Origin: a bacterium
Lineage (GTDB): Bacteria; Patescibacteriota; Minisyncoccia; UBA6257; JAGOQP01
Assembly: GCA_021814695.1 (NCBI GenBank)
Contig: JAKAHY010000002.1
Coordinates: forward strand, 8,920-72,919
Direction of reading: 5' to 3'
DNA: 64,000 bases
Positions 2,623 to 61,382 of this stretch are shown piece by piece. The position numbers and the translations under genes are program-made. The notes under the pieces were generated by a model that saw only the letters and a program-made list of their open reading frames with translations, made no database searches and was not told the origin of the DNA. Within the stretch, counting starts at the first letter, position 1. Each line of letters starts with the position of its first letter.

Positions 2623-2672
2623 AATGCTTCTTGTGCAAGGAGTGCTTGCACTACGAAGCCTTGGCGAAGTAG

Positions 2673-2988
2673 TGGAGATGGCGAGAGTTGAACTCGCGTC
2701 CAGAAAGAGGGATTGAAAGCGTCTACGGGCGTATCTTCTTTTGGAAGCTGATTTGCTTTCTGATTGTCCCTACGGATACGAAAGCGCTTTCCGTGGGTAA
2801 GCCTCAAATATAACACCGGCGATTTCCCCATGAGACATCGGGAGCCGATGGCTTACGCACGAACTAAAAAGTTCTTAAGCGTATGCAAGTGCTACATTTC
2901 TGTTAGCAGATTTGTTTTGGCGGATTTACAAGTCGCCGCTTGACCCGCAACTTTCAAAGAACTCTATCTGTCAAAGCCCAGCATCCCC
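2673..2988 (-). ncRNA. ssrA: tmRNA (SsrA), about 316 nt, encoding the tag ANRNVALAYA*
   Basis: 5' GGGGAUG pairs with 3' CAUCUCC-A and includes the G3·U Ala identity pair. T-arm is GCGAG-TTCAACT-CTCGC. 5' domain reads CUGGGCUUUGACAG. Tag ORF is GCU AAC AGA AAU GUA GCA CUU GCA UAC GCU UAA, followed by the hairpin GAACUuuuuaGUUC. It lies immediately 3' of smpB. Confidence 0.85.
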
Positions 2989-3426
2989 TTAGGCAATATG
3001 TTTTCTTACTTGGCGCTCGGTTTCCCTTTTTTTAATCGTTTCTCTCTTATCCGTTTTCTTCTTGTGAACGCCCAGTCCTATTTCAAGCTTTATTTTACCG
3101 CGCTTGTTATACAGCTTAAGGGGCACCAGAGTCAAGTTTTTGGATGATGCTTGACCGACAAGAGCGATAATTTCCGACTTTTTTGCCAAAAGTCGGCGCG
3201 ATCGGCGAGGATCGAAATCTTTGGGTGTATTTTTCTCCTGGTAGGGGCCAATTGTTGCGCCAACCAGCCAAAGCTGTCCTCCATAAATTTTAACCAACGA
3301 CCCGACAACACTGGCTTTACCGGAGCGGATAGCTTTAGCCTCATGGCCCAAAAGTTCAATTCCGGCATTTAAAGTGTCGGAAATTTCGTAATCAAAATAG
3401 GCTTTTTTGTTTTGGATTGATTCCAT
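2989..3426 (-). CDS. smpB: SsrA-binding protein SmpB
   Basis: YFDYEI.....GIEL.G.E.K......ASV.GS ... C-terminal basic tail; adjacent to the tmRNA. Confidence 0.95.
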   Translation of the reverse strand: MESIQNKKAYFDYEISDTLNAGIELLGHEAKAIRSGKASVVGSLVKIYGGQLWLVGATIGPYQEKNTPKDFDPRRSRRLLAKKSEIIALVGQASSKNLTLVPLKLYNKRGKIKLEIGLGVHKKKTDKRETIKKRETERQVRKHIA

Positions 3427-3470
3427 CTGTTTATTTATGATAGTGCCTTGTGGGATTTTTTTGCAAGCGA

Positions 3471-3481
3471 TGTGATATAAT
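3471..3481 (+). promoter_or_regulatory. Extended -10 promoter TGTGATATAAT, copy 1 of 4 of a shared motif
   Basis: ttgcaagcgaTGTGATATAATgaaacaaataaaaaactATG, nearly identical to the motifs at 5688, 8367 and 52583. Confidence 0.45.
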
Positions 3482-3498
3482 GAAACAAATAAAAAACT

Positions 3499-5643
3499 AT
3501 GAAAAAATCTTCATTAATCGTGGTCATTTTGCTTGTTGTGGCAAGCGTAGGAATGACCGTCATCTTTTCAAATCAAGTGTCGATAAAGGGATTTCTATCG
3601 AGCGTTTATTCTACTGCATCAGGCAGAAATCATATACAGCTGGCAAACGCTCAGTCCTTGGGACAGGGGGTTGTAGTTTTTAAAGCGCAATTTGGCCATT
3701 TGGAAGCAACCGGCCAAGTTGTCTCCGGTATTTCCGGACTAGCGGGGCTGCCGGTGACAAAATTTGTTCCCGACAGAGACCTTTCGGATTCTGAAAAAAA
3801 GCAGGTTGAAGTAAACATCACCGAAGAGAACACCGTTTTCGGATTTATTGTGGCAAAAAACGTTTCATTAGGGCAGGGAATCGGTTTTAACATTCCCCAA
3901 GGAGAAGTTTATAACTACGGTTTTTATGTGAATTCCGACATCCTTCCTCAAGGATGGACATATAACTCTTCTTGCGTAGAGACGGGAGGAAATATTAAAT
4001 TATCTGCCGGCCAACAAAGCGAATGCACGATAGGTTTTTATCTGAAACCAACGCCTGCGCCGGTTACTCCTCCCGCTTCGACGTCCACTCCCGTCTCACC
4101 TCAGGAAGGAGCGTCAGGTACCGTTATTAGTGAAGATTCCGGTTCTGGATCGCTGCAGTTTGTAAAAAATATTTTGGACTTAAGTACGGGGTGGAAAAAC
4201 CCCGGATCGGATAAAATATTGGACGCAAAAATCGTTGAATTATACGGAAAGAAATTTCTTATTGTTTCGACTCAAAACAAACATTTGCTTGTTTACGATG
4301 CTTCAAACCAGTTTTCGCCGGTTCTTTTGAAAGATAATGATTTATCAGGCAGTAACGTGTCGGCGTTTTATCTTGTGGTTTTAGATAATTTCAATTACGT
4401 ATTTGCCTGGGGAGGAAACTCTGCCAACTACGGATCTTTTAAGATTGAACAAGACGGATCTGCGTCTCTGGTAAAAAGTTACAAACCTGACCAATATAGC
4501 GTTACTCAACCGAATTTGGTTTTCGGGTTGTTTAGAGGGTTAGACGGTAAAGCGTATGGATTTGGAGGGAACGGGGGCGATGGATGGCTAACTATTTATG
4601 ACGTGTCCGATCCGGCAAACATCAGCGAAATTGGATCATATCAAGATGGCTTAGTCGGGAATCACTGCGGCAATTATGGTCTGATTGGATTGGACAGGCC
4701 GCTTCAATGGAATACTTCTCAACAAGGGAACAAGCTTTATCTGGTAACTCATGCGGACCAGTGCGTCCAGCGGCTGCATACTTCCGGAGACGCCAGAATT
4801 TATATTTTTGACGTTTCTGATCCAAAAAATCCGCAGCTTTCCCATCAATATGAGCTTTCCGGTTCTTTTAACCACATACCTTCGGACGCGACTAAGGCCG
4901 AACAGACATTTCTTTTTGGCGGGATCGCCGACATTGCCGTTGATTCAAATTCGGGTAAGGTTTTTGATTTTTACAGGACGGTTTTTGATTGGCAGGGGCC
5001 ATCCTGGTCTCAGATAGCAAACATAGTGCATGGTACTTTGTTTAGATACAGAACCGGACTGGTCACTCTTTCACTGCAATCGGACGGTTCTCTAAAAGAA
5101 TTGTCGCGGGCTTTATTGTGCGAACAAAAGGGCCCAATGTATGATGGTGGCGGTCCGCAATATTATCGATGCGGCGACGTGGATGGAAACGACAAAAATA
5201 CCCAAGGCGGATATGATTATTCGGCAAGAAATTCTCAACAAAATTACAACGGAGTTTTTCTCCTCAGTGGGCCGGGAAATAGCGGTCAGGTGGGCTTACT
5301 AAGGAGTGATAATAGTTTTGTTGTCATTCCCGATACCGCCGGAGAGATGACTAAATTTAAGACGGCTATTAAAGATTCATCTTATTATTCGAATATCTAT
5401 AATCCCGCTATCAATGGTGTTGTGACCCAGGTTGACAGTAAAACATTTGCCATCTATCAATTTGATAGTTATTCGTTAAGCGTCGTTAAGGTTTTGTTGT
5501 CGCAATCTCTTGTGGGGGGATCGAAAAATCCCTCTCCTCCAGTGACCGGAGTTGCGCCTTCGGCAAACGTACCACTAACATCACCCGCATTTTCATTTAA
5601 TGCGCTCCTGAACATCTTCAGAAGGATACTTAACAACTACTAA
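3499..5643 (+). CDS. Cell-surface protein, paralog A: N-terminal signal-anchor, P/T-rich linker, LVIVD-like beta-propeller repeats, conserved C-terminal tail
   Basis: Repeats of the type LTIYDVSDPANISEIGSY and IYIFDVSDPKNPQLSHQY; N-terminal TM MKKSSLIVVILLVVASVGMTVIF; C-terminus ...SPAFSFNALLNIFRRILNNY. Confidence 0.8.
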   Translation: MKKSSLIVVILLVVASVGMTVIFSNQVSIKGFLSSVYSTASGRNHIQLANAQSLGQGVVVFKAQFGHLEATGQVVSGISGLAGLPVTKFVPDRDLSDSEKKQVEVNITEENTVFGFIVAKNVSLGQGIGFNIPQGEVYNYGFYVNSDILPQGWTYNSSCVETGGNIKLSAGQQSECTIGFYLKPTPAPVTPPASTSTPVSPQEGASGTVISEDSGSGSLQFVKNILDLSTGWKNPGSDKILDAKIVELYGKKFLIVSTQNKHLLVYDASNQFSPVLLKDNDLSGSNVSAFYLVVLDNFNYVFAWGGNSANYGSFKIEQDGSASLVKSYKPDQYSVTQPNLVFGLFRGLDGKAYGFGGNGGDGWLTIYDVSDPANISEIGSYQDGLVGNHCGNYGLIGLDRPLQWNTSQQGNKLYLVTHADQCVQRLHTSGDARIYIFDVSDPKNPQLSHQYELSGSFNHIPSDATKAEQTFLFGGIADIAVDSNSGKVFDFYRTVFDWQGPSWSQIANIVHGTLFRYRTGLVTLSLQSDGSLKELSRALLCEQKGPMYDGGGPQYYRCGDVDGNDKNTQGGYDYSARNSQQNYNGVFLLSGPGNSGQVGLLRSDNSFVVIPDTAGEMTKFKTAIKDSSYYSNIYNPAINGVVTQVDSKTFAIYQFDSYSLSVVKVLLSQSLVGGSKNPSPPVTGVAPSANVPLTSPAFSFNALLNIFRRILNNY

Positions 5644-5656
5644 AAATTTAAAATAA

Positions 5657-5685
5657 AGCCCCCTGTAAATACAGGGGGCTTTTTG
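5657..5685 (+). terminator. Rho-independent terminator
   Basis: GCCCCCTGtaaataCAGGGGGCttttt. Confidence 0.7.
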
Positions 5686-5687
5686 AA

Positions 5688-5698
5688 TGTGATATAAT
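5688..5698 (+). promoter_or_regulatory. Extended -10 promoter TGTGATATAAT (copy 2)
   Basis: gaaTGTGATATAATgaaacaaATGaaaaaaac. The first ATG (5697) lies inside the -10 box, so the start at 5709 is preferred. Confidence 0.45.
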
Positions 5699-5708
5699 GA
5701 AACAAATG

Positions 5709-8321
5709 AAAAAAACATTACTCATCGGGTTTATTGTGGTCGGCATTGTAAGCTTTTCGGCATTTACCGCGCATGCTCAGTCGGTCAATTATCTTAGTAA
5801 ATTTTTTGCAGATGTCTACGGAGCGTTTTTTGGGAATTCCCAAACGCAAAAAGTTGACGCCCAAACAGTGGGTAATGGAACACTTACTATTCATGCTCAG
5901 ATATGTCAGACGCTCGGGAATTTCGAAAATCCAAGCAGTGCGACCTGTTCTGGTACTCCTCGCGACCCCAATTCTACGGAGTCTCCGTTATTTGTTTATG
6001 ATGTCCAGCGCATAGTTGGGAATGGAGCGAGCGCTCAAGTTACCACAGTTCTTTCAGGTATCGGTCCCGGACAAAGTTATTCGTTACCGGCGAATACTCC
6101 AAACGCTAGTAATAATAACAGAGATGAGTACGTGATTGTGTTTAAGGGGGCACCGACAAATTATTTGTACGTGAGACAAGGAGGAAATTTTGATTTGCCC
6201 TATAAATTTTCAATTTCTTCCGGACAAAATACTCAAGTAAATATTCCTTATGTTATTTATACGGCGATTGAATCAACGGGTCCTGTTGGCACTACTGTTA
6301 CCGCCGATATTGTTGATGGCAATGGAAATTTTGTCAGAGCGCTGACGGCTTCAGAAATTCAATCGGTATCCTTTGACATCCAGCATTCGGTTCCGGCCAC
6401 CGGAGGATATGTCGGATCGCATGCGAACAATTTTGATACTCAAGTTTCTTCGGGAAAATTAAATACTTCATATCAGCTTGCGACCTATGTCCATTCCGGT
6501 TCAATTTTGACAAATATTAAGCCACCATCCGGTTACGTAGTCAGATCAATTAAGCCGGGAACATATTTTGATCCTACTGATGACGTTACTATTCATTTTA
6601 CCAAGTCTCCTGTTTCGTCTCAGGTTCAAAAAGTTGATCAAATGCTCTATGTTCCTAATGGAATTAGCTATGTAAAAAAAATAGCTCAAACATATTCGGA
6701 CAATGAATACAAATATTCGAATCTTGACGTTGATTTATTTGCTTATTATGGAAACAATAATCGTCCTTTTCCCTTGAACTGGACAGTTGCCAAATATTCG
6801 GGAGTTCCTTATTTGTTTATGAATGGAGCAGGAAAGATAGTTATTTATAATATTTCCGATCCTAAAAATCCCAAACAAGTTAGTGAATATGTTCTTTCCG
6901 GTTTGGAAAAATTTAATCAATACAAAGATCGTCAGGGAAATACTTATGGACAGTGTTCTCCTAACCAAGAAGGTACTCATGATTTTATAACTGGAGCCGG
7001 TAAAGTTTTTGCTCTTGATGATTCCCCTTATCTTTTGATTGACATTCAGAGACCGGGTGGGCCAGGCCCTGGAGGGACGGCAGTTTTGTCCTTAGATCCT
7101 TCAACTATGGCCATAACCGCCTATCCTCAATGGACCGAGTGTAACAGTGGTCAAGATACTCCCGGAACCGCTTTCGGAATGTATAAAGGAAGTGACGGAA
7201 ATACTTATTTTATTTCCCAATTCCCGAATAATGCATATGATACGGGTGGAGTAGATACCGGGAATATTGGTATTTACACAATCAATTCTGCTGGTATTGC
7301 CAATAAAGTTGTCGTTCTCAGCGGAATGTCCGGGATTGCTCCGAGTTTGGATTATTCTAATGGAACAATCTCTGTTGTTTCCGTTGGAAGTAAAAAATAT
7401 CTTATTGGTAATGGAAAATCATCTATCGCAAACATAAATTCGACCAGTGCACCAATTTATATTTACGATATTTCCAATCCAAAAAATATAATCAAAATCA
7501 ATCAACAGATCACGGTGTCTACGTCTGGGTCCGGCAGATTAAAAATTGACGAACAAGCCAATCGTATGTATGTTCAGTCATCCATTCCAAATCCTGCCGC
7601 AACATCAACTTCGTACACCATCCCCAAAACATTACCTATTTGGCAGGTATATGACTTGAGTGTTTTGCCCAGTACTCCAAAATTAATTGCTACTTATAAC
7701 AAACCAACCGACCTACTTAATTCAAGTCAAGTGAATGCTGATTTTTCTCAAATTACCAAGAGATTAAATATTGCATCGTCAGGTAATCTTGTGGATATAA
7801 ATAATTCTTCTTTCACTTACGGCGCCTACGGATATTCTTCTTCACTCCAGTTGATAAATGTTTCAAATAATTTAGCTTATATATCACTGTATACAAACGG
7901 AAAAAACCCTTGGGATACGATTGCCAATCAAGCCGGAGTAACGGACGGAAGCGAATACGGGACCAATGCTATTCAATTTATAGTTGACGTGTCCAATGCG
8001 TCCAGTCCCAAAATACTTGGAATGATATTCGGGCATACGGAATATTCTGCTTACGGACTTTCCGCCGGCGGATGGTTTGATGTTCCTCTTTACGGAAGTA
8101 TCTATAACTATAACGGATATATTTACCGAGCCAATTTCCGCATCGCTGATGTATGGAAATTGGGGAATCCTCCGGCCCAAAGTACGGGAGGTGCTGGAAG
8201 TGGGGCTGGTGCGAGCGGCACTGGAACTACCGAAGGAGGATCTGCGCCATCATCAGTTCAATCTCCATTTTCTTTCAGTTCTCTTTTGAAGATATTCCAG
8301 AGAGTGTTTAATAATCAATAA
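5709..8321 (+). CDS. Cell-surface protein, paralog B: cleavable signal peptide, LVIVD-like repeats, conserved C-terminal tail (the ORF track starts at 5697)
   Basis: Signal peptide MKKTLLIGFIVVGIVSFSAFTAHA|QS; repeats IVIYNISDPKNPKQVSEY and IYIYDISNPKNIIKI; G/S/T-rich linker; C-terminus ...SPFSFSSLLKIFQRVFNNQ. Confidence 0.8.
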   Translation, partial: KKTLLIGFIVVGIVSFSAFTAHAQSVNYLSKFFADVYGAFFGNSQTQKVDAQTVGNGTLTIHAQICQTLGNFENPSSATCSGTPRDPNSTESPLFVYDVQRIVGNGASAQVTTVLSGIGPGQSYSLPANTPNASNNNRDEYVIVFKGAPTNYLYVRQGGNFDLPYKFSISSGQNTQVNIPYVIYTAIESTGPVGTTVTADIVDGNGNFVRALTASEIQSVSFDIQHSVPATGGYVGSHANNFDTQVSSGKLNTSYQLATYVHSGSILTNIKPPSGYVVRSIKPGTYFDPTDDVTIHFTKSPVSSQVQKVDQMLYVPNGISYVKKIAQTYSDNEYKYSNLDVDLFAYYGNNNRPFPLNWTVAKYSGVPYLFMNGAGKIVIYNISDPKNPKQVSEYVLSGLEKFNQYKDRQGNTYGQCSPNQEGTHDFITGAGKVFALDDSPYLLIDIQRPGGPGPGGTAVLSLDPSTMAITAYPQWTECNSGQDTPGTAFGMYKGSDGNTYFISQFPNNAYDTGGVDTGNIGIYTINSAGIANKVVVLSGMSGIAPSLDYSNGTISVVSVGSKKYLIGNGKSSIANINSTSAPIYIYDISNPKNIIKINQQITVSTSGSGRLKIDEQANRMYVQSSIPNPAATSTSYTIPKTLPIWQVYDLSVLPSTPKLIATYNKPTDLLNSSQVNADFSQITKRLNIASSGNLVDINNSSFTYGAYGYSSSLQLINVSNNLAYISLYTNGKNPWDTIANQAGVTDGSEYGTNAIQFIVDVSNASSPKILGMIFGHTEYSAYGLSAGGWFDVPLYGSIYNYNGYIYRANFRIADVWKLGNPPAQSTGGAGSGAGASGTGTTEGGSAPSSVQSPFSFSSLLKIFQRVFNNQ

Positions 8322-8333
8322 TAATTTGAAACA

Positions 8334-8359
8334 ATCCCCCTAGCTGGGGGATTTTTTTG
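8334..8359 (+). terminator. Rho-independent terminator
   Basis: ATCCCCCtagctGGGGGATttttttt. Confidence 0.7.
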
Positions 8360-8366
8360 CAAGCAA

Positions 8367-8377
8367 TGTGATATAAT
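8367..8377 (+). promoter_or_regulatory. Extended -10 promoter TGTGATATAAT (copy 3)
   Basis: tttttttgcaagcaaTGTGATATAATaaaacaaataaaaataaccATG. Confidence 0.45.
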
Positions 8378-8396
8378 AAAACAAATAAAAATAACC

Positions 8397-10580
8397 ATGA
8401 AAAAATATTCATTAATTGTGATTATCTTACTTGTTGTTGCAAGTATAGGGATTACCGCTATCTTTTCAAGTCAAGTGTCGATAACCGGATTTCTTTTGAG
8501 CGTTTACTCAACTGTTTCGGGGAGCAATCAAATACAGAGAGTAAATGCACAAACGACAGGCCAAGGAACCATATTATTCCAAGGCCAATTCGGTCATCTT
8601 GAATCGACCGGAAAGGTCACTACCGGAATTTCGGGCTTATCCGGACTTCCGGTGATGAAATTTGTTAAAGACCGTGACCTATCTAGCGATGAAAAAAATC
8701 AGATTAGAGTGGATGTTATTGAACATAACACTCCTTTTGAATTTGTAGTTGCAAAAAATATTTCGCTTGGAGAGGGTGTTAATTTTAATATTCCCGTAGG
8801 TTCGACATATAGATATAGTTTTTATGTTCACCCCGACTCGATTCCCTCCGGATGGGTTTATTATTCCGGTTGTTTAGAGACCGATGGGAATGTTTCGGTA
8901 CTGGCCGGTCAGCAAAGTACTTGCAGCATAGGATTTTATTTAAAGCCCGAAACAATCTCACCCCCTCCGGTCACATCAACATCTACGATCACGTCTACTC
9001 CTTCGGTAGGTGTTTCGGGAACTGTTGTCGGTGAAGATGCCAGCGCAGGATCGTTGCAGTTTGTAAAAAACGTTTTGGATTTAAGCTCACAAAGAAAGGG
9101 CATTATTTATGGAGTTTTGGACGCAAGAACCGTTAATTTGTATGGAAAAAATCTTCTGATAGTTGCTAGAGGTGGAGCTTACTCTGCTACCACTCCAACC
9201 TGGCATATGCTTGTTTATGATATAACCGATCCGCTTGCCCCGGTTCTTTTGAAGGATAATGATATGTCCGGAAGTGGCATAATCTATAGTTCTCCAATGA
9301 CCGGTTTGGCAGTGCTTGATGGCTTTAATTATGTATTTGTCCGTGGAAATGTCGGTTACGGTTCGTTTAAAATTAATCAGGACGGAACTGCGTCTCTTGT
9401 GAAAAGCTATAAATATTCTGAAGTTCAGCAGATACAGACAGATTTAATCAGGGGATTGTTCAACGGTCTGGATGGAAATATATACGGCTACGGAGGGTTT
9501 GTGCAGGATGGAGGACTCGTGCTTTATAACGTTTCCGATCCCGCTAATATTATTCAAGTTGGAACGTATACTAATGGTCTTGAACCAGCGATTGCCATCT
9601 ATGGACAAATTGGATTGAATCGCCAGAGCACTTGGGGCGTTGTTAAAGAAGGAGGCAAACTTTATCTTATTGCTCATGCGGACCAGTTGGTTCTGCGCCT
9701 TCATACGGATTATGATGGAATGATTTATGTTTTTGATGTGTCCAATCCGGCAAGTCCGCAGCTTTCACATATCTATAAAATGTCCAGCTCCTTTAATCAC
9801 CTTCCTTCCGATATGACTTCGTATGAGAAGATGTTTCTTTACGGAGGAGAAGCTAATATATCGGTTGATCCAATATCAAATAGAGTATTTGATTTTTACA
9901 GAACGGTTTTTGATTGGCAGGGACCCAATCAGCTTAAGATAAAAGACATTCCTAAAGGAGCCTTGTTTCGTTATAGAAATGGAATAGCCGTTCTTTCAAT
10001 AGGAATCGATGGTTCTTTGAAATCAAGTTCCAGTAACATATTATTGTGCGAAAGAATAGCCATTCAAGATAATGGGACGTCAGGCGAAGATAAATGTGAT
10101 ACAAAGAGTCCCGAAACGGTTGGGGGATATTATAGTTCCAGTCTTTATGGAAACAGGAATCCTCAAGAAAATTATAACGGAGTATTTCTTCTTGGCGACG
10201 TGAATAATGTCGGACATGTAGGGCTGTTAAAAAGCGATGGTAGTTTTGTTATCATACCCGATCCAACCGGAGAAATGCTTAAATTCAAATCTGTCTTGGC
10301 TGACCCGTCGTATTATTCCGATCCTGGTTTTCGTTCGTCTCCAATCAATGGCATTGTCACTCAAGTTGATAGCAAAACCTTTGCAATATTTCAGATTGAT
10401 AATTATTCCATAAGTGTTACAAAGCTAAATCTATCACAATCCATAACGAGCGTAACACAAAAATCTTCGCCACCTACCACAAATGCCCCTAGTTCATTAA
10501 ATACATCATCTCCTACTCAGACTCCATTTTCCTTCAGCTCGCTCCTGAGAATATTTCAGAGGGTGTTCAATAGTCAGTAA
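8397..10580 (+). CDS. Cell-surface protein, paralog C (close paralog of A)
   Basis: N-terminal 230 aa nearly collinear with paralog A; repeats VLYNVSDPANIIQVGTY and IYVFDVSNPASPQLSHIY; C-terminus ...TPFSFSSLLRIFQRVFNSQ. Confidence 0.8.
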   Translation: MKKYSLIVIILLVVASIGITAIFSSQVSITGFLLSVYSTVSGSNQIQRVNAQTTGQGTILFQGQFGHLESTGKVTTGISGLSGLPVMKFVKDRDLSSDEKNQIRVDVIEHNTPFEFVVAKNISLGEGVNFNIPVGSTYRYSFYVHPDSIPSGWVYYSGCLETDGNVSVLAGQQSTCSIGFYLKPETISPPPVTSTSTITSTPSVGVSGTVVGEDASAGSLQFVKNVLDLSSQRKGIIYGVLDARTVNLYGKNLLIVARGGAYSATTPTWHMLVYDITDPLAPVLLKDNDMSGSGIIYSSPMTGLAVLDGFNYVFVRGNVGYGSFKINQDGTASLVKSYKYSEVQQIQTDLIRGLFNGLDGNIYGYGGFVQDGGLVLYNVSDPANIIQVGTYTNGLEPAIAIYGQIGLNRQSTWGVVKEGGKLYLIAHADQLVLRLHTDYDGMIYVFDVSNPASPQLSHIYKMSSSFNHLPSDMTSYEKMFLYGGEANISVDPISNRVFDFYRTVFDWQGPNQLKIKDIPKGALFRYRNGIAVLSIGIDGSLKSSSSNILLCERIAIQDNGTSGEDKCDTKSPETVGGYYSSSLYGNRNPQENYNGVFLLGDVNNVGHVGLLKSDGSFVIIPDPTGEMLKFKSVLADPSYYSDPGFRSSPINGIVTQVDSKTFAIFQIDNYSISVTKLNLSQSITSVTQKSSPPTTNAPSSLNTSSPTQTPFSFSSLLRIFQRVFNSQ

Positions 10581-10598
10581 AAATTAAAAATAAAATTG

Positions 10599-10630
10599 CT
10601 CCCATTTTAACGGATGGGGGCTGTTTTTTT
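10599..10630 (+). terminator. Rho-independent terminator
   Basis: CTCCCATtttaacggATGGGGGctgttttttt. Confidence 0.65.
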
Positions 10631-10668: not shown

Positions 10669-13600
10669 ATGTTGAGAAATCTTAAACACTTTAATCCGCC
10701 GGAAATTGAGGAAAAAGTTTTACAGCTTTGGAAAGAAAAAGGGATATTTCAAAAAACACTCAAAGTTCCAAAAGGAAAAAAGGCCCTGCCTACCGGCAGG
10801 CAGGCAAAAATATTTCGGTTTTGGGAAGGTCCACCGACAGCCAATGGCCGTCCCGGAATTCATCATATTTTAGCCCGTTCTTTTAAGGACGTTGTTTTGC
10901 GTTTTAAAACGATGCAAGGGTATACGGTTCCCCGTAAGGGTGGTTGGGATACTCATGGATTGCCCGTTGAAATCCAGGTTGAAAAGCAGCTCGGATTTAA
11001 AACAAAAAAAGATATAGAAGATTACGGAATAGCCGCATTCAACCAAAAATGTAAAGAATCAGTCTGGCTTTATCAAAGCGAATGGGAAAAATTGACCGAA
11101 CGCATGGGTTTTTGGCTGGATTTGAAAAATCCTTATGTCACATACCACAAAGATTACATAGAGTCGCTTTGGTGGATCATCAAACAAGTTTGGGATAAAG
11201 GGTTGATGTATCAAGGGCATAAAGTGGTTCCTTGGTGTACTCGCTGCGGGACAGCTCTTTCTTCCCATGAATTGGCTCAAGGATACAAAGAGCTTACCGA
11301 TACTTCTGTTTACATAAAATTTAAACTTCTTCCAAAACAAAAAATCGGTTCTTTTATAACCGATGATAAAACATACATCTTATCCTGGACGACGACTCCT
11401 TGGACTTTGCCCGGAAACGTCGCTTTGGCAGTCGGAAATAAAATCAAATATATTGCGGCAAAAATCGGAGGAGAGACTTTTATTATTGCGGAAGATCTTG
11501 CCGGATCGGTTTTGGGATCGGAAAATCATAAAGTTATCAATGAATTTAAAGGCGAGTCGATTTCAGGGAAAGAATACGCCCCACTTTTTGAAATTGCGGC
11601 ATTAAAAAAACCGGAATCGTACAAGGTATATCCGGCTAAATTTGTGACAACCACCGATGGAACGGGGGTGGTGCACACGGCCGTAATGTACGGAGAGGAC
11701 GATTATAACCTGGGAAAAGAAGTCGGACTTCCTCAGCATCATACGGTTACCGAACAAGGAACTTTCACAAAAGACGTTAAAGGATTTGAAGGGATGTACG
11801 TCAAAGCCAAGGAGACCGAGGATAAGATACTAGATTATCTAAAGAAAAATAATTTCCTTTTGCAAACACAGGCTTATACCCATGAATATCCTCATTGCTG
11901 GAGATGTGGAACTCCGCTTTTGTATTACGCGCGCAGTTCATGGTTTGTAGCGATGTCGAAACTGAAAGATAATCTGATCGAAAGCAACCAGGGAACCAAC
12001 TGGGTTCCGGCACATATCAAAGAGGGCAGATATGGAGAATGGCTCTCCGAAATTAAAGATTGGAATTTTTCACGGGAAAGATATTGGGGCACCCCACTGC
12101 CGATCTGGACGTGCGAGAATTGTGGAAACCATAAAGCTGTTGGAAGTTATAAAGAGCTTTCGGAACATCTTCCTTCTAGTACCAACAGATATATTCTTGT
12201 CCGTCATGGAGAAGCGGGGCAAAATGTTTCCAATATAATCAACTGCGACCCCAAAGATAAGGATAAATACCCGTTAACAACCAATGGAATAATCCAGGCG
12301 AAGAGAACTTCCCTGAGCCTCAAGAAAAAAATAAAAAAAATAGACGCGATTATCTCGTCGGATTTTATTCGGACAAAGGAAACCGCAAAAATTATCGGCG
12401 ATGAATTTGGAATAAAGAAAATAATCACCGATCCGCTTTTGAGGGAAGTTAACATGGGAGATTTTAACGGGGACAATGTTTCTCGTTACCACGAGTACTT
12501 TTCTTCGCTTGAAGAAAAATTTATGAAACGGACCCCTAACGGAGAAAACCTCAGAGATCTGGCCGCAAGAAGCTACGATTTTATACAAAAATGTGAAAAA
12601 AAATACAGCGGGAAAACTATTGTTGTGGTAGGGCATGAATATCCGCTGTGGATGGCGGAGACCGTTCTTTCTGGATGGAGTCAGGAAGAATCGGTGTCGG
12701 AAAAAGAAAAAAGAGGTCCCGATTTTATAGAAGTCGGAGGATTTGATTCCGTTACTTTTGTTCCGGCATCAAGAGATGAACAGGGAATCTGTGATTATCA
12801 TAAGCCATATGTGGATTCAATCAGCATCCCTTGCGAAAAATGCGGAAAAAAGATGAATCGAGTTAAAGAAGTTGCCGACGTATGGTTTGATTCGGGGTCA
12901 ATGCCATTTGCCCAAGATCATTATCCTTTTGAGAAGGGTGATAAAGTCGGGAAAGCGCCCCAATCGTTTCCGGCCGATTATATCTGTGAGGCAGTCGATC
13001 AGACCCGCGGGTGGTTTTACACTCTTATGGCCGTCTCTACATTATTGGATTATGAAACGCCGTATAAAAACGTCGTTTGCCTAGGGCATATAAACGACAA
13101 GCATGGACAGAAAATGTCCAAATCAAAAGGGAACATTGTTGATCCATGGATGATAATAGATAAATATGGCATTGATGCCGTTAGGTGGTATTTTTACACC
13201 GTTAATGCTCCGGGGGAGCCGAAGAATTTTGACGAGAATGAGGTTGCTAAAGTACTGAGAAAATTCAGCATGACTCTTTATAATTCGTTCGCGTTTTTGG
13301 CGCTTTATGGAAAACAGAAGGTAAGTATCCAAAAGAAACCTTCATCGCCGAATATTTTGGACAGGTGGATTTTGGCAAGGCTAAATCAAACAACTGTCGG
13401 AGTTTCGGACAAAATGGACGCATATGATTTCTTGGCTACCGGACAAATAATAGAATCGTTTATTGACGATCTTTCCAGATGGTACATTCGCCGATCGAGA
13501 AAGAGATTCCAAAAAATTTCGGATAAATCGGATTGGGGTACGGCGACCGGTGTTTTGGCGTATGTTTTGGCCGAATTTTCAAAAGTGATCGCTCCCTTTA

Positions 13601-14223
13601 CTCCATTTTTCGCCGAAGCTCTTTACAGATCCATAGCCGAATTTTGTTCGTTTAGCGCAAAAGAATCCGTTCATCTCGAATCATGGCCGGAGGGCAGGGT
13701 TTTTAATGACGATGCGGTTATGTCGGAAGCCATGAAACAGATAAGAGACTACGCCAGTGCTGTTTTGGCAAAAAGAGCCGAAGTTGGAATCAAAGTGCGG
13801 CAGCCTTTGAGCTTGTTGAAAATAAGAAGCATTAAGTCTAAAGAAAAAGACTCTAAACAATTATTAGAAGTGTTAAGGGATGAAGTTAACGTCAAAGAAG
13901 TTGTGATTGATCCAAAAATAGAAAATGAATTTGAGTTGGATATCAACATCACTCCGGAACTTAAAGCCGAAGGAATTTTGAGGGAAATAGCCCGGACAAT
14001 TCAGGAATTGAGACAAAGTTCGGCATGTGTTCCCAAGGATAAAATAGAAGTTCGCATTTCCGGACCTGCCGACATTGAAGCGGTGGTCAAAAACGGACAA
14101 GCCACGCTTTGCCAATACGTTAACGCCAAAAATATTCTTTTCGGTAAGAGCGGTAAATTTGATTCCGAAATTGAAACCAAAATTGATTCGTCAAAAATTT
14201 GGATAGGTTTAAGAAAAATATAA
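10669..14223 (+). CDS. ileS: Isoleucyl-tRNA synthetase (1184 aa) with an inserted histidine-phosphatase-like domain
   Basis: HIGH region PTANGRPGIHHILARS; KMSKS motif QKMSKSKGN; CP1/editing region; CxxC..CxxC zinc motifs (CENCG ... CEKCG); about 205 extra residues between the zinc knuckles. Confidence 0.95.
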   Translation: MLRNLKHFNPPEIEEKVLQLWKEKGIFQKTLKVPKGKKALPTGRQAKIFRFWEGPPTANGRPGIHHILARSFKDVVLRFKTMQGYTVPRKGGWDTHGLPVEIQVEKQLGFKTKKDIEDYGIAAFNQKCKESVWLYQSEWEKLTERMGFWLDLKNPYVTYHKDYIESLWWIIKQVWDKGLMYQGHKVVPWCTRCGTALSSHELAQGYKELTDTSVYIKFKLLPKQKIGSFITDDKTYILSWTTTPWTLPGNVALAVGNKIKYIAAKIGGETFIIAEDLAGSVLGSENHKVINEFKGESISGKEYAPLFEIAALKKPESYKVYPAKFVTTTDGTGVVHTAVMYGEDDYNLGKEVGLPQHHTVTEQGTFTKDVKGFEGMYVKAKETEDKILDYLKKNNFLLQTQAYTHEYPHCWRCGTPLLYYARSSWFVAMSKLKDNLIESNQGTNWVPAHIKEGRYGEWLSEIKDWNFSRERYWGTPLPIWTCENCGNHKAVGSYKELSEHLPSSTNRYILVRHGEAGQNVSNIINCDPKDKDKYPLTTNGIIQAKRTSLSLKKKIKKIDAIISSDFIRTKETAKIIGDEFGIKKIITDPLLREVNMGDFNGDNVSRYHEYFSSLEEKFMKRTPNGENLRDLAARSYDFIQKCEKKYSGKTIVVVGHEYPLWMAETVLSGWSQEESVSEKEKRGPDFIEVGGFDSVTFVPASRDEQGICDYHKPYVDSISIPCEKCGKKMNRVKEVADVWFDSGSMPFAQDHYPFEKGDKVGKAPQSFPADYICEAVDQTRGWFYTLMAVSTLLDYETPYKNVVCLGHINDKHGQKMSKSKGNIVDPWMIIDKYGIDAVRWYFYTVNAPGEPKNFDENEVAKVLRKFSMTLYNSFAFLALYGKQKVSIQKKPSSPNILDRWILARLNQTTVGVSDKMDAYDFLATGQIIESFIDDLSRWYIRRSRKRFQKISDKSDWGTATGVLAYVLAEFSKVIAPFTPFFAEALYRSIAEFCSFSAKESVHLESWPEGRVFNDDAVMSEAMKQIRDYASAVLAKRAEVGIKVRQPLSLLKIRSIKSKEKDSKQLLEVLRDEVNVKEVVIDPKIENEFELDINITPELKAEGILREIARTIQELRQSSACVPKDKIEVRISGPADIEAVVKNGQATLCQYVNAKNILFGKSGKFDSEIETKIDSSKIWIGLRKI
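10785..10804. repeat. 20-nt GC-rich near-perfect palindrome CCTGCCTACCGGCAGGCAGG inside ileS (encodes ..ALPTGRQAK..)
   Basis: Inverted-repeat arms CCTGCCTA/CAGGCAGG around CCGG; the same palindrome recurs at 36984..37003 in csaA. Confidence 0.6.
12175..12790 (+). other. Inserted histidine phosphatase (phosphoglycerate-mutase-like, branch 1) domain within IleRS
   Basis: YILVRHGEAGQN (RHG catalytic motif with N at +7) ... VVGHEYPLW (second His); inserted between WTCENCG and YHKPYVDSISIPCEKCG. Confidence 0.6.
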
Positions 14224-52582: not shown

Positions 52583-52593
52583 TGTGATATAAT
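52583..52593 (+). promoter_or_regulatory. Extended -10 promoter TGTGATATAAT (copy 4)
   Basis: aaggcaataaTGTGATATAATaataactt... 33 nt upstream of the ATG at 52626. Confidence 0.4.
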
Positions 52594-52625
52594 AATAACT
52601 TAGGATAATAATTAAAAAAACAAAC

Positions 52626-53384
52626 ATGAGAAACAAATTATTTGTATTATTCGTAGCAGTGGCTCTTGTTTTCGGTGGAATATACTATGCTTTCGCTCAA
52701 GAAAGCGGAGGAGCAAAAGTCCAACTACAAGGACAAGTCGAGACCCAAAACAGTGGGGGAGAAGTCCAGGTTCAGGTCCAATCCCGGAACGAGGTACAAA
52801 GTGGGAATGACAGCGAAAAGAATTCTACCGGCACCGAGTCCGAGATGAACCAGAAAAACGAAATTCAAGGCCAGAATGAGATTAAGGGAGAAAATGAAAT
52901 TGAAGCAACGAGCTCACAGGAAGGAACGAGCAGCGATCAGGAAGTCGAAAAAACCGAGCCGGTAAAAATGGCCGAGCAAACCAGAAGCGAAGTCGCTAAC
53001 GCAGTTCAGGAAATGCTTAGCGTTGCCGACAGAGCCGGAGGAATCGGAAGCGAAATCAAAGTTATTGCACAAGCCCAAAATGAAAATCAGCTGAAAATAG
53101 AAAACAGCATAAAAAATATTGAAGGGCGAAACGGCTTCGTTAAATTTTTGATAGGTCCGGACTACAATGAAGTTGATAATGCCCAAAAGGCCTTGAGCCA
53201 AAACAAGGAACAAATTACCCAACTCAACCAAATTAAGGCTAAAATTACCAATCAGGCCGATCAGCAGGTGTTGGCTAACCAAATCTCCATTCTTGAAAAA
53301 GCCAACGTGAATATTGAAACGTCTCTGAATCAATCGCAAGGAGGTTTTAGTCTTTTTGGCTGGCTGTTTAGGATAGTTAAATAA
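52626..53384 (+). CDS. Secreted low-complexity (Q/N/E/S-rich) hypothetical protein
   Basis: Signal peptide MRNKLFVLFVAVALVFGGIYYAFA|QE; repeated NEIQGQNEIKGENEIE; C-terminus GGFSLFGWLFRIVK. Confidence 0.65.
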   Translation: MRNKLFVLFVAVALVFGGIYYAFAQESGGAKVQLQGQVETQNSGGEVQVQVQSRNEVQSGNDSEKNSTGTESEMNQKNEIQGQNEIKGENEIEATSSQEGTSSDQEVEKTEPVKMAEQTRSEVANAVQEMLSVADRAGGIGSEIKVIAQAQNENQLKIENSIKNIEGRNGFVKFLIGPDYNEVDNAQKALSQNKEQITQLNQIKAKITNQADQQVLANQISILEKANVNIETSLNQSQGGFSLFGWLFRIVK

Positions 53385-53394
53385 TAGCGAACAA

Positions 53395-53440
53395 AAAAGC
53401 CGCGAAAGATAAATGTCCGAGCGGCTTTTTGTTTTATCGG
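53395..53440 (+). terminator. Rho-independent terminator
   Basis: AGCCGCgaaagataaatgtccgaGCGGCTttttgtttt. Confidence 0.6.
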
Positions 53441-56279: not shown

Positions 56280-56978
56280 TTATGCCTTTGCCACCACTAA
56301 GCCGATTATTTTTTGGGCGCCATATTTTTTAAGAAGAAGAGAAATTTCGTTAAGCGTTGCCCCTGATGTTGAAACGTCATCTATCAGGATAATGTTTTTG
56401 CCCGAAACCGACTCCGGGCCGGTAATTTGAAAACATTCGGAAATATTTTTTATTCTTTCGGAAAAATCTTTGGTTTTGGCCTGGGGTGGATTATTTTTTA
56501 CTCTTTTCAGGACATCAAGACAGGGGAGAGAAAAATAATCCGAAACAACAGAGGCAATAATTTGCGCCTGATTGAATCCTCGGGCGCGAAATTTGGATTT
56601 ATGAAGGGGAACGAATGTTATAACATATCGGCTCAAATCGATTCCGGTTTCTTTAAGATATGAAATTAACATGGCACATAATATTGTTCCTATGCCCTCT
56701 ATTTTTTTATATTTAAATGTATGGATCAGGGACGGTATGGGTGCTTCAAATCTGCTTGCGGGCGCCAAGACATAGCTTGTGTCGTGGCATTTATCTGTCC
56801 CCGGCAGGCGGGACATACACTTCGGGCAATAAAGAGCCGAGTTGAGACGTATTTCATCAAAGCATGATTGGCAAAGAAATTGTTTCTGATCGGGAATGGA
56901 GGATTTGCAGTTTACGCATACAGGAGGAAAAACGGTGTCCGAGGCTAATTTATTCAATTGAGCGATGATTTTTATCAT
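56280..56978 (-). CDS. comFC: ComF family protein (ComFC-like phosphoribosyltransferase with N-terminal 4-Cys zinc finger)
   Basis: CVNCKS...CQSC zinc finger; PRTase motif IILIDDVSTSGATL. Confidence 0.85.
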   Translation of the reverse strand: MIKIIAQLNKLASDTVFPPVCVNCKSSIPDQKQFLCQSCFDEIRLNSALYCPKCMSRLPGTDKCHDTSYVLAPASRFEAPIPSLIHTFKYKKIEGIGTILCAMLISYLKETGIDLSRYVITFVPLHKSKFRARGFNQAQIIASVVSDYFSLPCLDVLKRVKNNPPQAKTKDFSERIKNISECFQITGPESVSGKNIILIDDVSTSGATLNEISLLLKKYGAQKIIGLVVAKA

Positions 56979-57047: not shown

Positions 57048-58142
57048 TTGTCTTATACGACCATGTTTGATCTCTTAAAAAAAATTATTCCCGGACGATC
57101 TTCTTATCTTGGCGTTGATATCGGGACTACCTCAATTAAAGCTGTCGAACTTACCAAAGGAGCGCAAAATCCGACTCTGACGAATTACGGACTTTTGGAA
57201 AGTTATGGCCACTTTGAGCGTGCTAATAATGTCATACAGGCCAACGCCCTTAAGCTTTCAGAAAAAGAGACAACGTTTATGCTTAAGACTCTTGTAAAAC
57301 AATCGGGATTTAAAACCAGCGCGGCGATTGCATCCATTCCTTCGTTTGCTTCTTTCATAACAATGATTGAAATGCCCTCCATGTCAGAAGAAGAGACTAA
57401 TAAAGCTATGGGATTTCAGATAAGACAGAGCGTTCCTCTGCCCCTATCGGAAATTGCCGTAGATTGGATTAGGGTCGGCGAACGCAATGATGAAAACGGG
57501 TTTGCTAAACAGCAGATGGTTCTCATCGCAATTCCAAACGAAACGGTTTCCAGATATAAATCTATTTTCAAGGGAGCGGGACTTTCTTTAAAAGCGCTCG
57601 AAGTGGAAAGCCTGTCCTATATACGATCGGTTATTGGAGGAGATAAAACTCCTTCGATGATTATTGATATCGGTGCGCGCTCCACAAACATCACTGTCGT
57701 TGACCAGGGATTTTTGAAACATAATTCTCAGATAGATTATGCCGGAGATTCTTTAACGCAAGCGATTACCAAGGGACTGGGTATAAGCTACAAGAGAGCC
57801 GAGGAGCTCAAGAAACAACGGGGCATAAGCGGAGGGTCCGGAGAATATGAGTTATCCACATTGGAACTACCTTTCATAGATGTTATAATTAGTGAGGTAA
57901 ATAAGGTTAAGGACAATTTTGAGTCCAATTTTGGCTTAAAAATTCAGCGGGCCATACTCATAGGGGGAGGCTCAAGCTTGATAGGAATAGATAAATATTT
58001 TGAAAGCCAAATGCAAATAACCTCAGTGTTGGGCAATGGATTACTTTTTGTGAATACTCCAAGTCAGTTGAACGTTGTTGAAAAAGAGTTGCAGGTAAGA
58101 TTTGCGACAGCGATAGGGCTTGCGATAAAGAATTTCGTTTAG
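57048..58142 (+). CDS. pilM: Type IV pilus assembly protein PilM (actin-like ATPase)
   Basis: LGVDIGTTSIKAVEL...IIDIGARSTNI...LIGGGS. Confidence 0.85.
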   Translation: MSYTTMFDLLKKIIPGRSSYLGVDIGTTSIKAVELTKGAQNPTLTNYGLLESYGHFERANNVIQANALKLSEKETTFMLKTLVKQSGFKTSAAIASIPSFASFITMIEMPSMSEEETNKAMGFQIRQSVPLPLSEIAVDWIRVGERNDENGFAKQQMVLIAIPNETVSRYKSIFKGAGLSLKALEVESLSYIRSVIGGDKTPSMIIDIGARSTNITVVDQGFLKHNSQIDYAGDSLTQAITKGLGISYKRAEELKKQRGISGGSGEYELSTLELPFIDVIISEVNKVKDNFESNFGLKIQRAILIGGGSSLIGIDKYFESQMQITSVLGNGLLFVNTPSQLNVVEKELQVRFATAIGLAIKNFV

Positions 58143-58155
58143 TTTTAAATTTTTC

Positions 58156-58719
58156 ATGGCAGATTTAAATACAACAGTAAATCGAGCGCGAGCGGCAGGA
58201 GCGGCATCCGCCGGTTTTCCTTGGCGGCTTTTAATTATATCTTTCGTTGTGTTCGGGCTGACGATTCTTGTCTGGGCCGGAATTCAATTTGGATACATTC
58301 CGTTTTTGAATTCCCAGTTATCGAACGCTATGGCTAATTTTAATTCCCTTTCCGGAAAAATCAGCGAGCAACAGCAGAAAGACCTGACCGGTTTTTATTC
58401 TCAGCTCTATAATATTCAGTCTTTGCAAGCGTCACATATTTATTCCGCGAAACTGTTTGATTTTTTGGAGAAAAATATTTATCCCAACGTTGTTTTAACC
58501 AGTTTTCAGGCGAGCCTTACCGGAGGAAGTATCCGTTTTGATGGAATTGCTTCCGACTACTCTACCCTAACTAACGAGCTGGCAATACTTAAATCCGATC
58601 CGAACGTAACTTTGGTAACGCTGGATTCGTCGCGCCAAAAAGATGTTAAAGAAGGAGGGGGAGTGGCATTTACAATAAGCGTATCCATTTCGCCAAAATT
58701 ATTTGATTCCGCCCAATAA
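58156..58719 (+). CDS. pilN: PilN-like type IV pilus assembly protein
   Basis: Single N-terminal TM; position after pilM. Confidence 0.55.
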   Translation: MADLNTTVNRARAAGAASAGFPWRLLIISFVVFGLTILVWAGIQFGYIPFLNSQLSNAMANFNSLSGKISEQQQKDLTGFYSQLYNIQSLQASHIYSAKLFDFLEKNIYPNVVLTSFQASLTGGSIRFDGIASDYSTLTNELAILKSDPNVTLVTLDSSRQKDVKEGGGVAFTISVSISPKLFDSAQ

Positions 58720-59305
58720 TATGAAAACAAGCTCCAGAAGAATTCTATTTGTCATATTATCTCTAACCTTGGTTATTGCGGCTGCTTTTGTATATTCCTC
58801 TTTTATTTCTCCGGCCTATGACAATGTCATGACTTTAAGAAGCCAAATTGCGTCCCAGAACTCCGTTATTCAGAGATTCCAGATTACATTCGGAAAGGTG
58901 CAAAAACTTTTATCGGATCTTCAGACCGCTCCGGATGTCCAAAAACAGGTATCTCTGATTCTCCCGACGTCCCGTGACGTGAGTTATTTGGTCGGCCAGA
59001 TTTCAGGACTTGCCGAAGCAAACGGAATGACGCTTTCGCTTCTTTCAACAAATGTTCTTCCGGTTCAGCCGGCACAATCCAAAGTTATTCAGTCTGTGGG
59101 AAAATTGCGAGCGGATATCAAGTTGAACGGAAGTTATGCCGGATTCAAATCTTTTCTGAGGCAATTGCAATCAAATATTCTTCTGCTTGATGTGACGGAT
59201 ATTAAAATAGACAGCAGCGTGGTCAGTGGCACTACCGGTAGGGCCGGCTCAACATCTTTATCGTATTCCATATCTGTAAATAGTTATTATCAAACGAGTC
59301 AATAA
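58703..59305 (+). CDS. pilO: PilO-like type IV pilus assembly protein
   Basis: N-terminal TM, coiled coil; overlaps pilN by 17 nt. Confidence 0.5.
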   Translation: MIPPNNMKTSSRRILFVILSLTLVIAAAFVYSSFISPAYDNVMTLRSQIASQNSVIQRFQITFGKVQKLLSDLQTAPDVQKQVSLILPTSRDVSYLVGQISGLAEANGMTLSLLSTNVLPVQPAQSKVIQSVGKLRADIKLNGSYAGFKSFLRQLQSNILLLDVTDIKIDSSVVSGTTGRAGSTSLSYSISVNSYYQTSQ

Positions 59306-59308
59306 TTT

Positions 59309-59605: not shown

Positions 59606-59607
59606 AT

Positions 59608-61344: not shown

Positions 61345-61382
61345 ATTAGCCAATAAATATTCGATAAGTTATACTTAAATAT

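Follow-up and report, generated by a model that had tools for sequence, protein, structure and literature searches.

The three tandem genes A, B and C in the 64-kb window (the whole stretch of DNA that was analysed, taken from an uncultivated bacterium, probably with a tiny genome and, judged by gene content and a relative on a 562-kb contig, probably CPR/Patescibacteria-like) belong, in the reading that we consider probable, to a small multigene family, specific to its lineage, whose products are Sec-exported envelope proteins. Their architecture follows the order signal peptide, conserved N-peptide, one or more all-beta domains, linker, beta-propeller, linker and a cationic amphipathic helix. 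As proposed, each gene would be transcribed on its own from an extended -10 promoter, through a very short leader lacking a Shine-Dalgarno sequence, to an intrinsic terminator. After export the linker or stalk would hold the propeller outward, the C-terminal helix would tether the protein either in the outer leaflet of the cytoplasmic membrane, like PBP5, or on a specific envelope partner, and a face of the propeller would bind an external ligand or the surface of a partner cell; the function may be in adhesion, as a coat or in ligand capture. Published work on how ultra-small host-dependent bacteria form their surface and touch partner cells has concentrated on type IV pili, and the family provides concrete candidates for such surface or partner contact, being strongly promoted exported propellers with a recognisable tail. 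Paralogous LVIVD-type surface proteins of this general sort are common, and the find is incremental: the family is real, but as a lineage-specific group of surface proteins it is rather ordinary and gives no pointer to a new biochemical principle.

Gene A (3499–5643, forward strand) is an intact ORF of 714 aa consisting of a signal peptide (aa 1–24), the conserved N-peptide (25–52), an all-beta N-terminal domain (53–182), a P/T/S linker (183–215), a seven-bladed LVIVD-type propeller (~216–668), a second linker (669–697) and the tail (698–714). Gene B (5706–8321, forward strand) is an intact ORF of 871 aa (MKKTLL...) in which the signal peptide and conserved N-peptide are followed by a larger N-terminal all-beta region, the propeller (~aa 357–776), a G/S/T linker and the tail, while gene C (8397–10580, forward strand; intact, 727 aa) is a paralog of A with the same domain order. 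The three genes are bordered on the left by smpB (2989–3426) and the adjoining tmRNA gene ssrA (2670–2988), both within 2670–3426 on the reverse strand and kept as an anchor in related genomes, and on the right by ileS (10669–14223, forward strand), encoding an IleRS with an inserted His_Phos_1 domain. The coordinates of the initial annotation, which gave proteins of 714, about 869 and 727 aa, were borne out and its length for B was close. The start of B is almost certainly the ATG at 5706, where independent gene calls also place it, giving a product of 871 aa; a public protein collection contains the 871-aa form and lacks the 874-aa form, and the ATG at 5697 is not the start since it lies inside the -10 box. 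The possibility that the three ORFs are fragments of one frameshifted gene, which the same annotation had named as a reason to discard its reading, was checked and is excluded because A, B and C are intact and separate: a signal peptide, a promoter and a terminator belong to each of them, and each has full-length relatives in other sequences.

When analysing the upstream regions an identical sequence, TGTGATATAAT, representing a perfect extended -10 (TGnTATAAT), was identified ahead of A, B and C, starting at 3471, 5688 and 8367. The whole window has just one further exact copy, at 52583, making four. In the promoter segment of A (3449–3495, forward strand) it covers 3471–3481, with the TG at 3473–3474 and TATAAT at 3476–3481, and is preceded by a T-run and followed by an A-rich leader without a Shine-Dalgarno sequence. 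For B (5688–5698, forward strand; TATAAT 5693–5698) only 7 bases (5699–5705) separate the -10 from the ATG at 5706, and the mRNA is therefore probably leaderless or nearly so. The promoter segment of C (8345–8391, forward strand) contains the sequence at 8367–8377, and its 47 nt match the corresponding segment of A at 94% identity, as compared with 64% for the coding DNA of the two genes. All three genes are followed on the forward strand by a G+C-rich hairpin and a T-run: the putative intrinsic terminator of A (5655–5686) forms a hairpin at 5655–5682 with a 12-bp stem (AAAGCCCCCTGT/ACAGGGGGCTTT) and a 4-nt loop, and its T-run directly adjoins the promoter of B; that of B (8333–8360) consists of AATCCCCC-TAGCT-GGGGGATT (hairpin 8333–8353) and that of C (10598–10630) of GCTCCCATTT-TAAC-GGATGGGGGC (hairpin 10598–10621). 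The same layout of terminator, TGnTAtAAT, short leader and ATGAAAAAA recurs upstream of relatives in other genomes, with five further loci and a second genomic site showing it. With three copies of the extended -10 and three hairpins with T-runs in place, the proposal of a common promoter and a separate terminator for each gene agrees with the sequence, and A, B and C are predicted to be independent transcription units.

Full-length alignment of A and C gives 54% identity, and the similarity takes in the signal peptide, N-terminal domain and P/T linker. These shared parts had been noted before, but the domain measures ~130 aa (aa 53–182) and reaches the ~180 aa then assigned to it only if the leader is counted. 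BLAST gave only local matches between B and A, while profile comparison of B with the A/C type showed homology over 445 columns (hhalign 99.8%, E 2.5e-28), and B is by this comparison a distant paralog of A and C. The repeat motif h-h-Y-[DN]-[VI]-S-[DN]-P, on which membership of the LVIVD family had been proposed, is present in all three proteins and nowhere else in a six-frame translation of the window, but is degenerate, being kept in only two to three blades of each (two copies in A, two in B and three in C). Judged by the whole-protein score, for which the gathering cutoff of the Pfam LVIVD model (PF08309) is 20.2 bits, A (27.1 bits, E 2.5e-6) and C (21.3 bits, E 1.7e-4) are above the cutoff with two significant stretches each, and B gave no match at E ≤ 10. 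Three of the seven B-type members of our alignment A2 match the model at E ≤ 1 (best 5.9e-4), the B of the window not being among them. By sequence comparison LVIVD membership is thus direct for A and C, as proposed, and for B by homology only. When the A/C-type profile was searched against 1.84 billion proteins the weak matches were canonical LVIVD proteins, 10 out of 10 sampled (PF08309 E 1e-26 to 1e-139).

LVIVD repeats were defined in cell-surface proteins of Methanosarcina (Adindla et al. 2004, PMC2447325). The A/B/C proteins resemble members of PF08309 in their predicted export and in having a beta-propeller core whose blades carry the signature h-h-[YV]-D-[VI]-S-[DN]-P. Canonical members are made up of tandem repeats of ~42 residues, each with its signature, and the ten sampled reach 90–450 bits over the whole protein with 1–14 separately significant repeats (at least 5 in eight of the ten), whereas A, B and C keep the motif in two to three blades, and their blades are irregular in length with long insertions. 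The N-terminal domain, conserved leader and C-terminal tail of the present family are likewise not part of LVIVD proteins. In structure prediction the repeats are modelled as a degenerate seven-bladed LVIVD-type beta-propeller, in line with the fold proposed in the initial annotation; the AF2 models are moderate overall (mean pLDDT 56 and 51), with N-terminal domains and tails of low confidence, and the structural matches of the propeller are generic (6–12% identity).

BtuG is a surface propeller capturing vitamin B12, and an organism with a reduced genome relies on scavenging. A, B and C could accordingly be pictured as secreted or envelope binding proteins or enzymes for the capture of nutrients or cofactors and not as adhesins or a coat, and the conserved Cys pair of the A type, together with an invariant Glu (LCEQ.G...CG), could mark a binding site. 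We regard this as very unlikely, as unrelated WD40 propellers match by the dozen just as well as BtuG-like ones (Z differences <2, 6–12% identity), no transporter gene is adjacent to A, B or C, and the body, with 28% identity between close species, evolves faster than is usual where a conserved site binds a small molecule. The likeness to YncE/BtuG-type seven-bladed propellers, as to beta-propeller S-layer proteins, concerns the general fold only, and those proteins are lipoproteins or otherwise anchored, unlike A, B and C.

The reading as Sec-exported envelope proteins is in agreement with the N-termini. A, B and C and their relatives have hydrophobic N-termini with AxA-type sites, scored as Sec-type signal peptides by a heuristic and not a trained predictor, and the proteins are predicted to be extracytoplasmic, at the cell surface. 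The conserved Cys pair of the A type likewise speaks for export. In B the cleavage site AHA|Q is canonical and aligns with IFS|N of A. A signal anchor had been suggested for A and C, and the hydrophobic export signal is indeed present, but in view of this alignment the N-terminus, with two candidate cleavage sites at ~aa 24 and ~aa 51, may instead be a cleaved signal peptide. The leader, i.e. the conserved N-terminus, is 64–71% identical between species and is exchanged as a module between body types.

At the other end the proteins terminate in a cationic amphipathic helix of 16–20 aa with the consensus FSFxxLLxIFxRxL, located in A at 5590–5640 (FSFNALLNIFRRILNNY; muH 0.59, charge +2; tail HMM 31.6 bits), in B at 8268–8318 (FSFSSLLKIFQRVFNNQ; 28.3 bits) and in C at 10527–10577 (FSFSSLLRIFQRVFNSQ; 28.7 bits), all on the forward strand. 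Of the 34 members and fragments inspected 32 have it, in each case as the very last element of the protein and behind a linker consisting to 53–82% of S/T/P/G/N/Q/A. Every full-length member has a muH of 0.44–0.76 (0.24 for one 77-aa fragment); the charge is +2 to +4 and the mean hydrophobicity ~0–0.4, and AF2 placed helices, with low confidence, at 700–712 in A and 857–870 in B. The tail HMM matches 16 of 16 non-redundant family ORFs with 22–35 bits, ending 0–1 residues from the stop, the next best among 910 ORFs being 6.6 bits; Pfam and NCBIfam models gave no match to the tail. Between species it is 75% identical compared with 28% for the propeller and 7–18% for the linkers, with many synonymous and few amino-acid changes (8 synonymous and 1 non-synonymous in 14 codons between B and C), showing at the sequence level that tail and leader are under peptide-level purifying selection. 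These two elements, absent from the initial annotation, are the most distinctive features of the family. As a compact 17-residue module the tail is a possible search key for envelope proteins of these lineages and a possible localisation tag.

An envelope-anchoring role is suggested by the relative P0023, which has TIG and PG_binding_1 (E 5e-19) where the others have the tail, and the tail most likely tethers A, B and C to the cell envelope. A comparable element is the last 18 aa of the exported E. coli protein PBP5, an amphipathic helix that fixes the protein on the inner membrane at its outer face (PMC2909392). The tail has the same length and position as the anchor of PBP5/PBP6 (PMC2909392), is likewise amphipathic and cationic and lacks a transmembrane segment, but there is no sequence similarity, the protein bodies are unrelated, membrane binding would be by analogy, and the sequence is conserved far beyond the needs of plain lipid binding. 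Conservation of both tail and signal peptide beyond that of a generic membrane helix argues for a specific partner, although none was found.

The tail also resembles C-terminal sorting signals (LPXTG, PEP-CTERM, PGF-CTERM, GlyGly-CTERM) in being a short C-terminal signature after a low-complexity linker in paralogous surface proteins. Tail and leader could thus be signals for a system of the sortase/LPXTG or exosortase/PEP-CTERM kind, in which the tail would be recognised, perhaps removed, and the protein attached covalently to wall or lipid; the extreme C-terminal position combined with strict peptide conservation across bodies of ~25% identity, the modular exchange of the leader and the replacement of the tail by a wall-binding domain in P0023 would all fit. 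Nevertheless all described signals of the sortase, exosortase, archaeosortase and rhombosortase types are defined by a transmembrane helix, which the tail does not have; with 16–20 residues and a charge of +2 to +4 it is neither long nor hydrophobic enough to cross a membrane. No NCBIfam sorting-signal model matches it, no candidate enzyme is conserved beside the family genes at any locus examined, and neither the window nor ~300 kb of related loci (partial genomes) yielded a sortase-, exosortase- or rhombosortase-like gene; in this related sequence the tail is confined to the one protein family instead of occurring on diverse cargo. Such a dedicated sorting system is therefore quite improbable. 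We hold it unlikely, if somewhat less so, that the leader and FSFxxLLxIFxRxL constitute, in a clade of tiny-genome (CPR-like) bacteria, an undescribed sequence-specific system that targets propeller surface proteins to the envelope or anchors them there, with the tail docking on a dedicated receptor or processing factor and not just on lipid, and with these proteins as the main coat (S-layer) or partner-cell attachment proteins of the clade, encoded in a variable smpB–ileS expression island.

At the smpB–ileS site, a defined position in the chromosome, close relatives differ in the number and subtype of family genes. The site carries three of them in the window and in locus L004, two in L009 and L013 and one in L010; the genes are of different subtypes among related genomes, and further singletons exist at other loci. 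Between related genomes SmpB is 86% and IleRS 78% identical, as compared with 30–37% for the family proteins sandwiched between them, showing by sequence comparison that A/B/C-type genes change far more rapidly than the genes around them. S-layer proteins typically diverge quickly between species, and the combination of signal peptide, beta-rich domains, linker or stalk and C-terminal anchor is similar to known S-layer layouts. In a survey (bioRxiv 10.1101/2024.05.28.596244) S-layer proteins were reported from Patescibacteria, and one with a beta-propeller from Dehalococcoides. A, B and C might then form an S-layer or coat, an abundant self-assembling lattice of propellers and beta-sandwiches with linker and tail as the anchoring stalk, and the near-consensus extended -10 and strong own terminators of these monocistronic genes would suggest high expression. 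However, neither an SLH domain nor any other known S-layer anchoring domain was found in A, B or C with Pfam and NCBIfam, and a copy number of one to three at the site with singletons elsewhere fits families of adhesins or binding proteins more than a single lattice subunit, making a lattice an unlikely, minority reading. For the envelope protein family favoured here, the diversification proposed in the initial annotation is seen between species (28% identity of the body) and between paralogs. Within the strain there is no sign of ongoing hypervariation of the antigenic type, since three independent sequencing runs gave the A/B/C locus with 100% identity.

Three large open reading frames lie in tandem on the plus strand between smpB-ssrA (2670–3426, minus strand) and ileS (10669–14223): A (3499–5643, 714 aa), B (ending at 8321) and C (8397–10580, 727 aa). 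The first ATG of B, at 5697, was ruled out as a start since it sits within a TATAAT box (5693–5698) constituting the -10 element. ATG 5706 was chosen by independent gene callers and gives a protein of 871 aa, the sole version on record, and it is therefore taken as the start of B; the N-termini are then parallel (MKKTLL in B, MKKSSL in A and MKKYSL in C). Along their whole length A and C share 54% identity, with synonymous sites saturated (64% nucleotide identity), while BLAST of B against A gave only short matches at the repeat motif, the N-terminal signal region (leader) and the conserved C-terminal end (tail). Profile-profile comparison of an alignment of A/C-type proteins with one of seven B-type proteins did however reveal homology (99.8% probability, E 2.5e-28) over 445 columns spanning the leader, an R-x-L-[ST]-x-x-E motif of the N-terminal domain and the propeller blades, so that B is, judged by its profile, a distant paralog of A and C with a larger N-terminal region.

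A perfect extended -10 (TGnTATAAT) in the form of the 11-mer TGTGATATAAT was found in four copies in the 64-kb window, three of them 10–20 nt upstream of the start codons of A, B and C. Identity between A and C reaches 94% across the 47-nt promoter segments as compared to 64% for the coding DNA. A G+C-rich hairpin with a T-run lies downstream of each gene (5655–5682 for A, 8333–8353 for B and 10598–10621 for C), and among relatives at five other loci and a second genomic site the same order recurs, hairpin/T-run, TGnTAtAAT, a short A-rich leader and ATGAAAAAA, which independently supports monocistronic units. The initial annotation had proposed three large paralogous genes, each a separate unit with its own promoter and terminator, and both points were borne out. 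That the three are pieces of one frameshifted gene is excluded, each having its own signal peptide, promoter, terminator and full-length relatives. High expression of A, B and C would be expected from promoters so close to consensus. A missing Shine-Dalgarno sequence is not peculiar to these genes but genome-wide (nearly all of the 35 window genes checked), and -10-like boxes lie a few bases 5' of the ATG in several window genes, including B, ileS and comF; together this suggests that mRNAs of this genome have, as a rule, a very short leader or none.

To the Pfam model LVIVD (PF08309) A scored 27.1 bits and C 21.3 bits, both above the cutoff of 20.2, whereas B of the window gave no match at E <= 10; three of the seven aligned B-type proteins, B itself not among them, matched weakly. 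Strict copies of the repeat motif number two in A, two in B and three in C, with none elsewhere in the window. AlphaFold2 models were moderate overall (mean pLDDT 56 and 51) with well-formed cores, residues 216–668 (approximately) of A lying mostly at pLDDT 70–90. When 1.84 billion representative proteins were searched exhaustively with a profile, the result was about 25 full-length relatives, the family being small and lineage-restricted (4–7 matches in a word-indexed set of 5.8 billion), followed by weak multi-stretch matches, of which all ten sampled were canonical LVIVD proteins (E 1e-26 to 1e-139). Sequence searches of the PDB gave no match. Scores, motif copies, modelled cores and the nature of the weak matches together identify the core of the proteins as a degenerate LVIVD-type propeller. 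The LVIVD propeller assignment made earlier for all three proteins is thus supported, with the qualifications that B fails the Pfam model and that the repeats are degenerate. By fold and sequence the three belong, as divergent representatives, to the class of LVIVD propellers originally reported from surface proteins of Methanosarcina (PMC2447325), A and C directly and B via homology. A motif, LCEQ.G...CG (9–16 residues before the CG), was also noted at aa 541–558 of A (about 5119–5172) and in A-type relatives, in a propeller loop of low model confidence. Its Glu is invariant and its Cys pair conserved among 16 sequences only about 25% identical, and the motif may form a disulfide-bonded loop or mark a site of function.

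The conserved Cys pair and Glu of the A-type proteins are consistent with an extracytoplasmic location. An N-terminal hydrophobic segment is present in all members, in many directly followed by a canonical AxA/Q site (the slash marking the cleavage point). In B this is AHA/Q at residue 24, aligned to IFS/N in A, and a second conserved site, V-x-A/Q, at about residue 51–55 is the sole cleavage site in the short-leader relatives P0008 and P0009. Neither a lipobox nor a pilin-type signal was found in the N-termini of the family. Those of A, B and C are of exported type, either cleaved at one of the two candidate sites or kept as an anchor.

At the other end, 32 of the 34 members and fragments examined, comprising A/C-type, B-type and a third type (e.g. 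L009-699 and P0027), carry a low-complexity S/T/P/G/N/Q linker and then the tail, 16–20 residues with the consensus FSFxxLLxIFxRxL(N) and a net charge of +2 to +4. Neither long nor apolar enough for a transmembrane helix, the tail has a helical hydrophobic moment of 0.44–0.76 in every full-length member, against 0.24 in a single 77-aa fragment. An HMM built from 26 tails was searched against 910 ORFs (the window and about 300 kb of related loci) and recovered all 16 non-redundant members of the family with scores of 22–35 bits, the match always ending 0–1 residues from the stop, while no other ORF among the 910 exceeded 6.6 bits. One ORF (62460–63674) matched a loose regular expression for the tail but encodes a PilC-like membrane protein and was rejected. 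A search with the X-padded tail alone against 5.8 billion proteins gave 239 word-sharing candidates, none of which scored, the tail being too short for significance, and Pfam and NCBIfam, including the curated sorting-signal models, showed no match to it.

Between species, A and its relative P0004 are 75% identical in the tail and 64–71% in the signal/leader, compared to 29% in the N-domain, 28% in the propeller and 7–18% in the linkers. Tails differ at many synonymous sites, those of B and C for instance by eight synonymous changes and one non-synonymous over 14 codons, and among the leaders there are 9–11 differences in 40 codons, synonymous only. Codon comparison thus places the conservation at the peptide level, and the plentiful synonymous differences rule out recent gene conversion as its cause. 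The A/C-type leader is also present on B-type bodies (L009-713 and L010-869), so the termini behave as modules. In the relative P0023 (761 aa) the tail is lacking and a TIG-like and a PG_binding_1 domain (E 5e-19), plus a Cys-containing segment, stand in its place, a replacement which argues that the job of the tail is attachment to the cell envelope.

In the proposed mechanism the tail would, as a C-terminal cationic amphipathic helix, tether the mature protein to the envelope, the linker would hold the propeller outward, and the propeller would bind an external ligand or the surface of a partner cell; adhesion, as put forward in the initial annotation, is a candidate role. The closest working likeness, although putative and unrelated in sequence, is the amphipathic anchor of PBP5 in E. 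coli, an exported enzyme whose last 18 residues fasten it to the cytoplasmic membrane from outside (PMC2909392). The described classes of C-terminal sorting signals are defined by a transmembrane helix, which the tail lacks; no model matched it and no sorting enzyme was found in the window or beside relatives, and A, B and C fall outside every one of these classes. The unusually strict sequence of leader and tail nevertheless suggests a specific partner of both termini, and although none was found, two less likely variants stand for this reason besides simple tethering: that the termini are recognised by such a partner in sorting or docking, or that the proteins form an S-layer, both beta-propeller S-layer proteins and S-layer proteins of Patescibacteria having been reported (bioRxiv 10.1101/2024.05.28.596244). 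The 17-residue tail makes a neat testable module. This small LVIVD-type family has conserved ends not described before and a variable locus that is well delimited; it would hardly surprise a specialist, but it offers a way into the surface biology of bacteria with tiny genomes.

Comparing related genomes, the number and subtype of family genes at the smpB-ileS site vary. Where the window has A (714), B (871) and C (727), L004 has a B-type protein of 945 aa and A-type proteins of 724 and 737 aa, L009 has 699 and 713, L013 has 946 and 808, and L010 only 869. Singletons of the family occur at other sites, with RNase H and IMPDH as neighbours in L005–L008, L011 and L012, NAD kinase and murB in L016, and an integrase on one side in L018. 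Between the window and L004, SmpB is 86% and IleRS 78% identical but the proteins between them only 30–37%, which marks the site, on these identities, as a variable island whose genes diverge fast. Contigs of three independent runs match at 100% identity across the locus, which contains neither inverted nor template-like repeats, and within the strain there is thus no sign of ongoing hypervariation (DGR or shuffling). The diversification suggested in the initial annotation is seen between species and between paralogs. In L018 (region 8981–9889) the copy P0028 directly adjoins a gene for a tyrosine recombinase/integrase, some 7 kb downstream of ileS, which hints that some copies move by site-specific recombination.

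Of the flanking genes, the tmRNA gene (2670–2988, minus strand) begins right after the stop of smpB (2989–3426) and the two therefore probably share a transcript; the tag peptide that ARAGORN predicts, EAYPRKALSYP, is unusual. Within IleRS (1184 aa) an entire histidine-phosphatase domain (PF00300, E 4e-28) occupies aa 509–673 (about 12193–12687), an insert splitting the halves of the catalytic domain and present also in L009 and L018. The window further encodes lower glycolysis, RNase Y, metal ABC transporters, many small unannotated proteins, a ComF-like protein (56280–56978) and a type IV pilus cluster (57048–63674; PilM, PilN, PilB, PilT and PilC), with a second PilB-like ATPase gene at the left end (97–705) cut by the window edge. 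From this gene content, the rarity of Shine-Dalgarno sequences and the presence of one family member on the 562-kb contig AP024682.1, we infer a CPR/Patescibacteria-like organism.

The fourth copy of the 11-mer (52583) precedes an ORF (52626–53384) with its own terminator (region 52583–53432), encoding a 252-aa exported, low-complexity (Q/E/N/S-rich) protein. Its hydrophobic-cationic C-terminus, GGFSLFGWLFRIVK, resembles the family tail by eye but was not matched by the tail HMM and was therefore rejected as a tail; the product may be another strongly expressed envelope protein.
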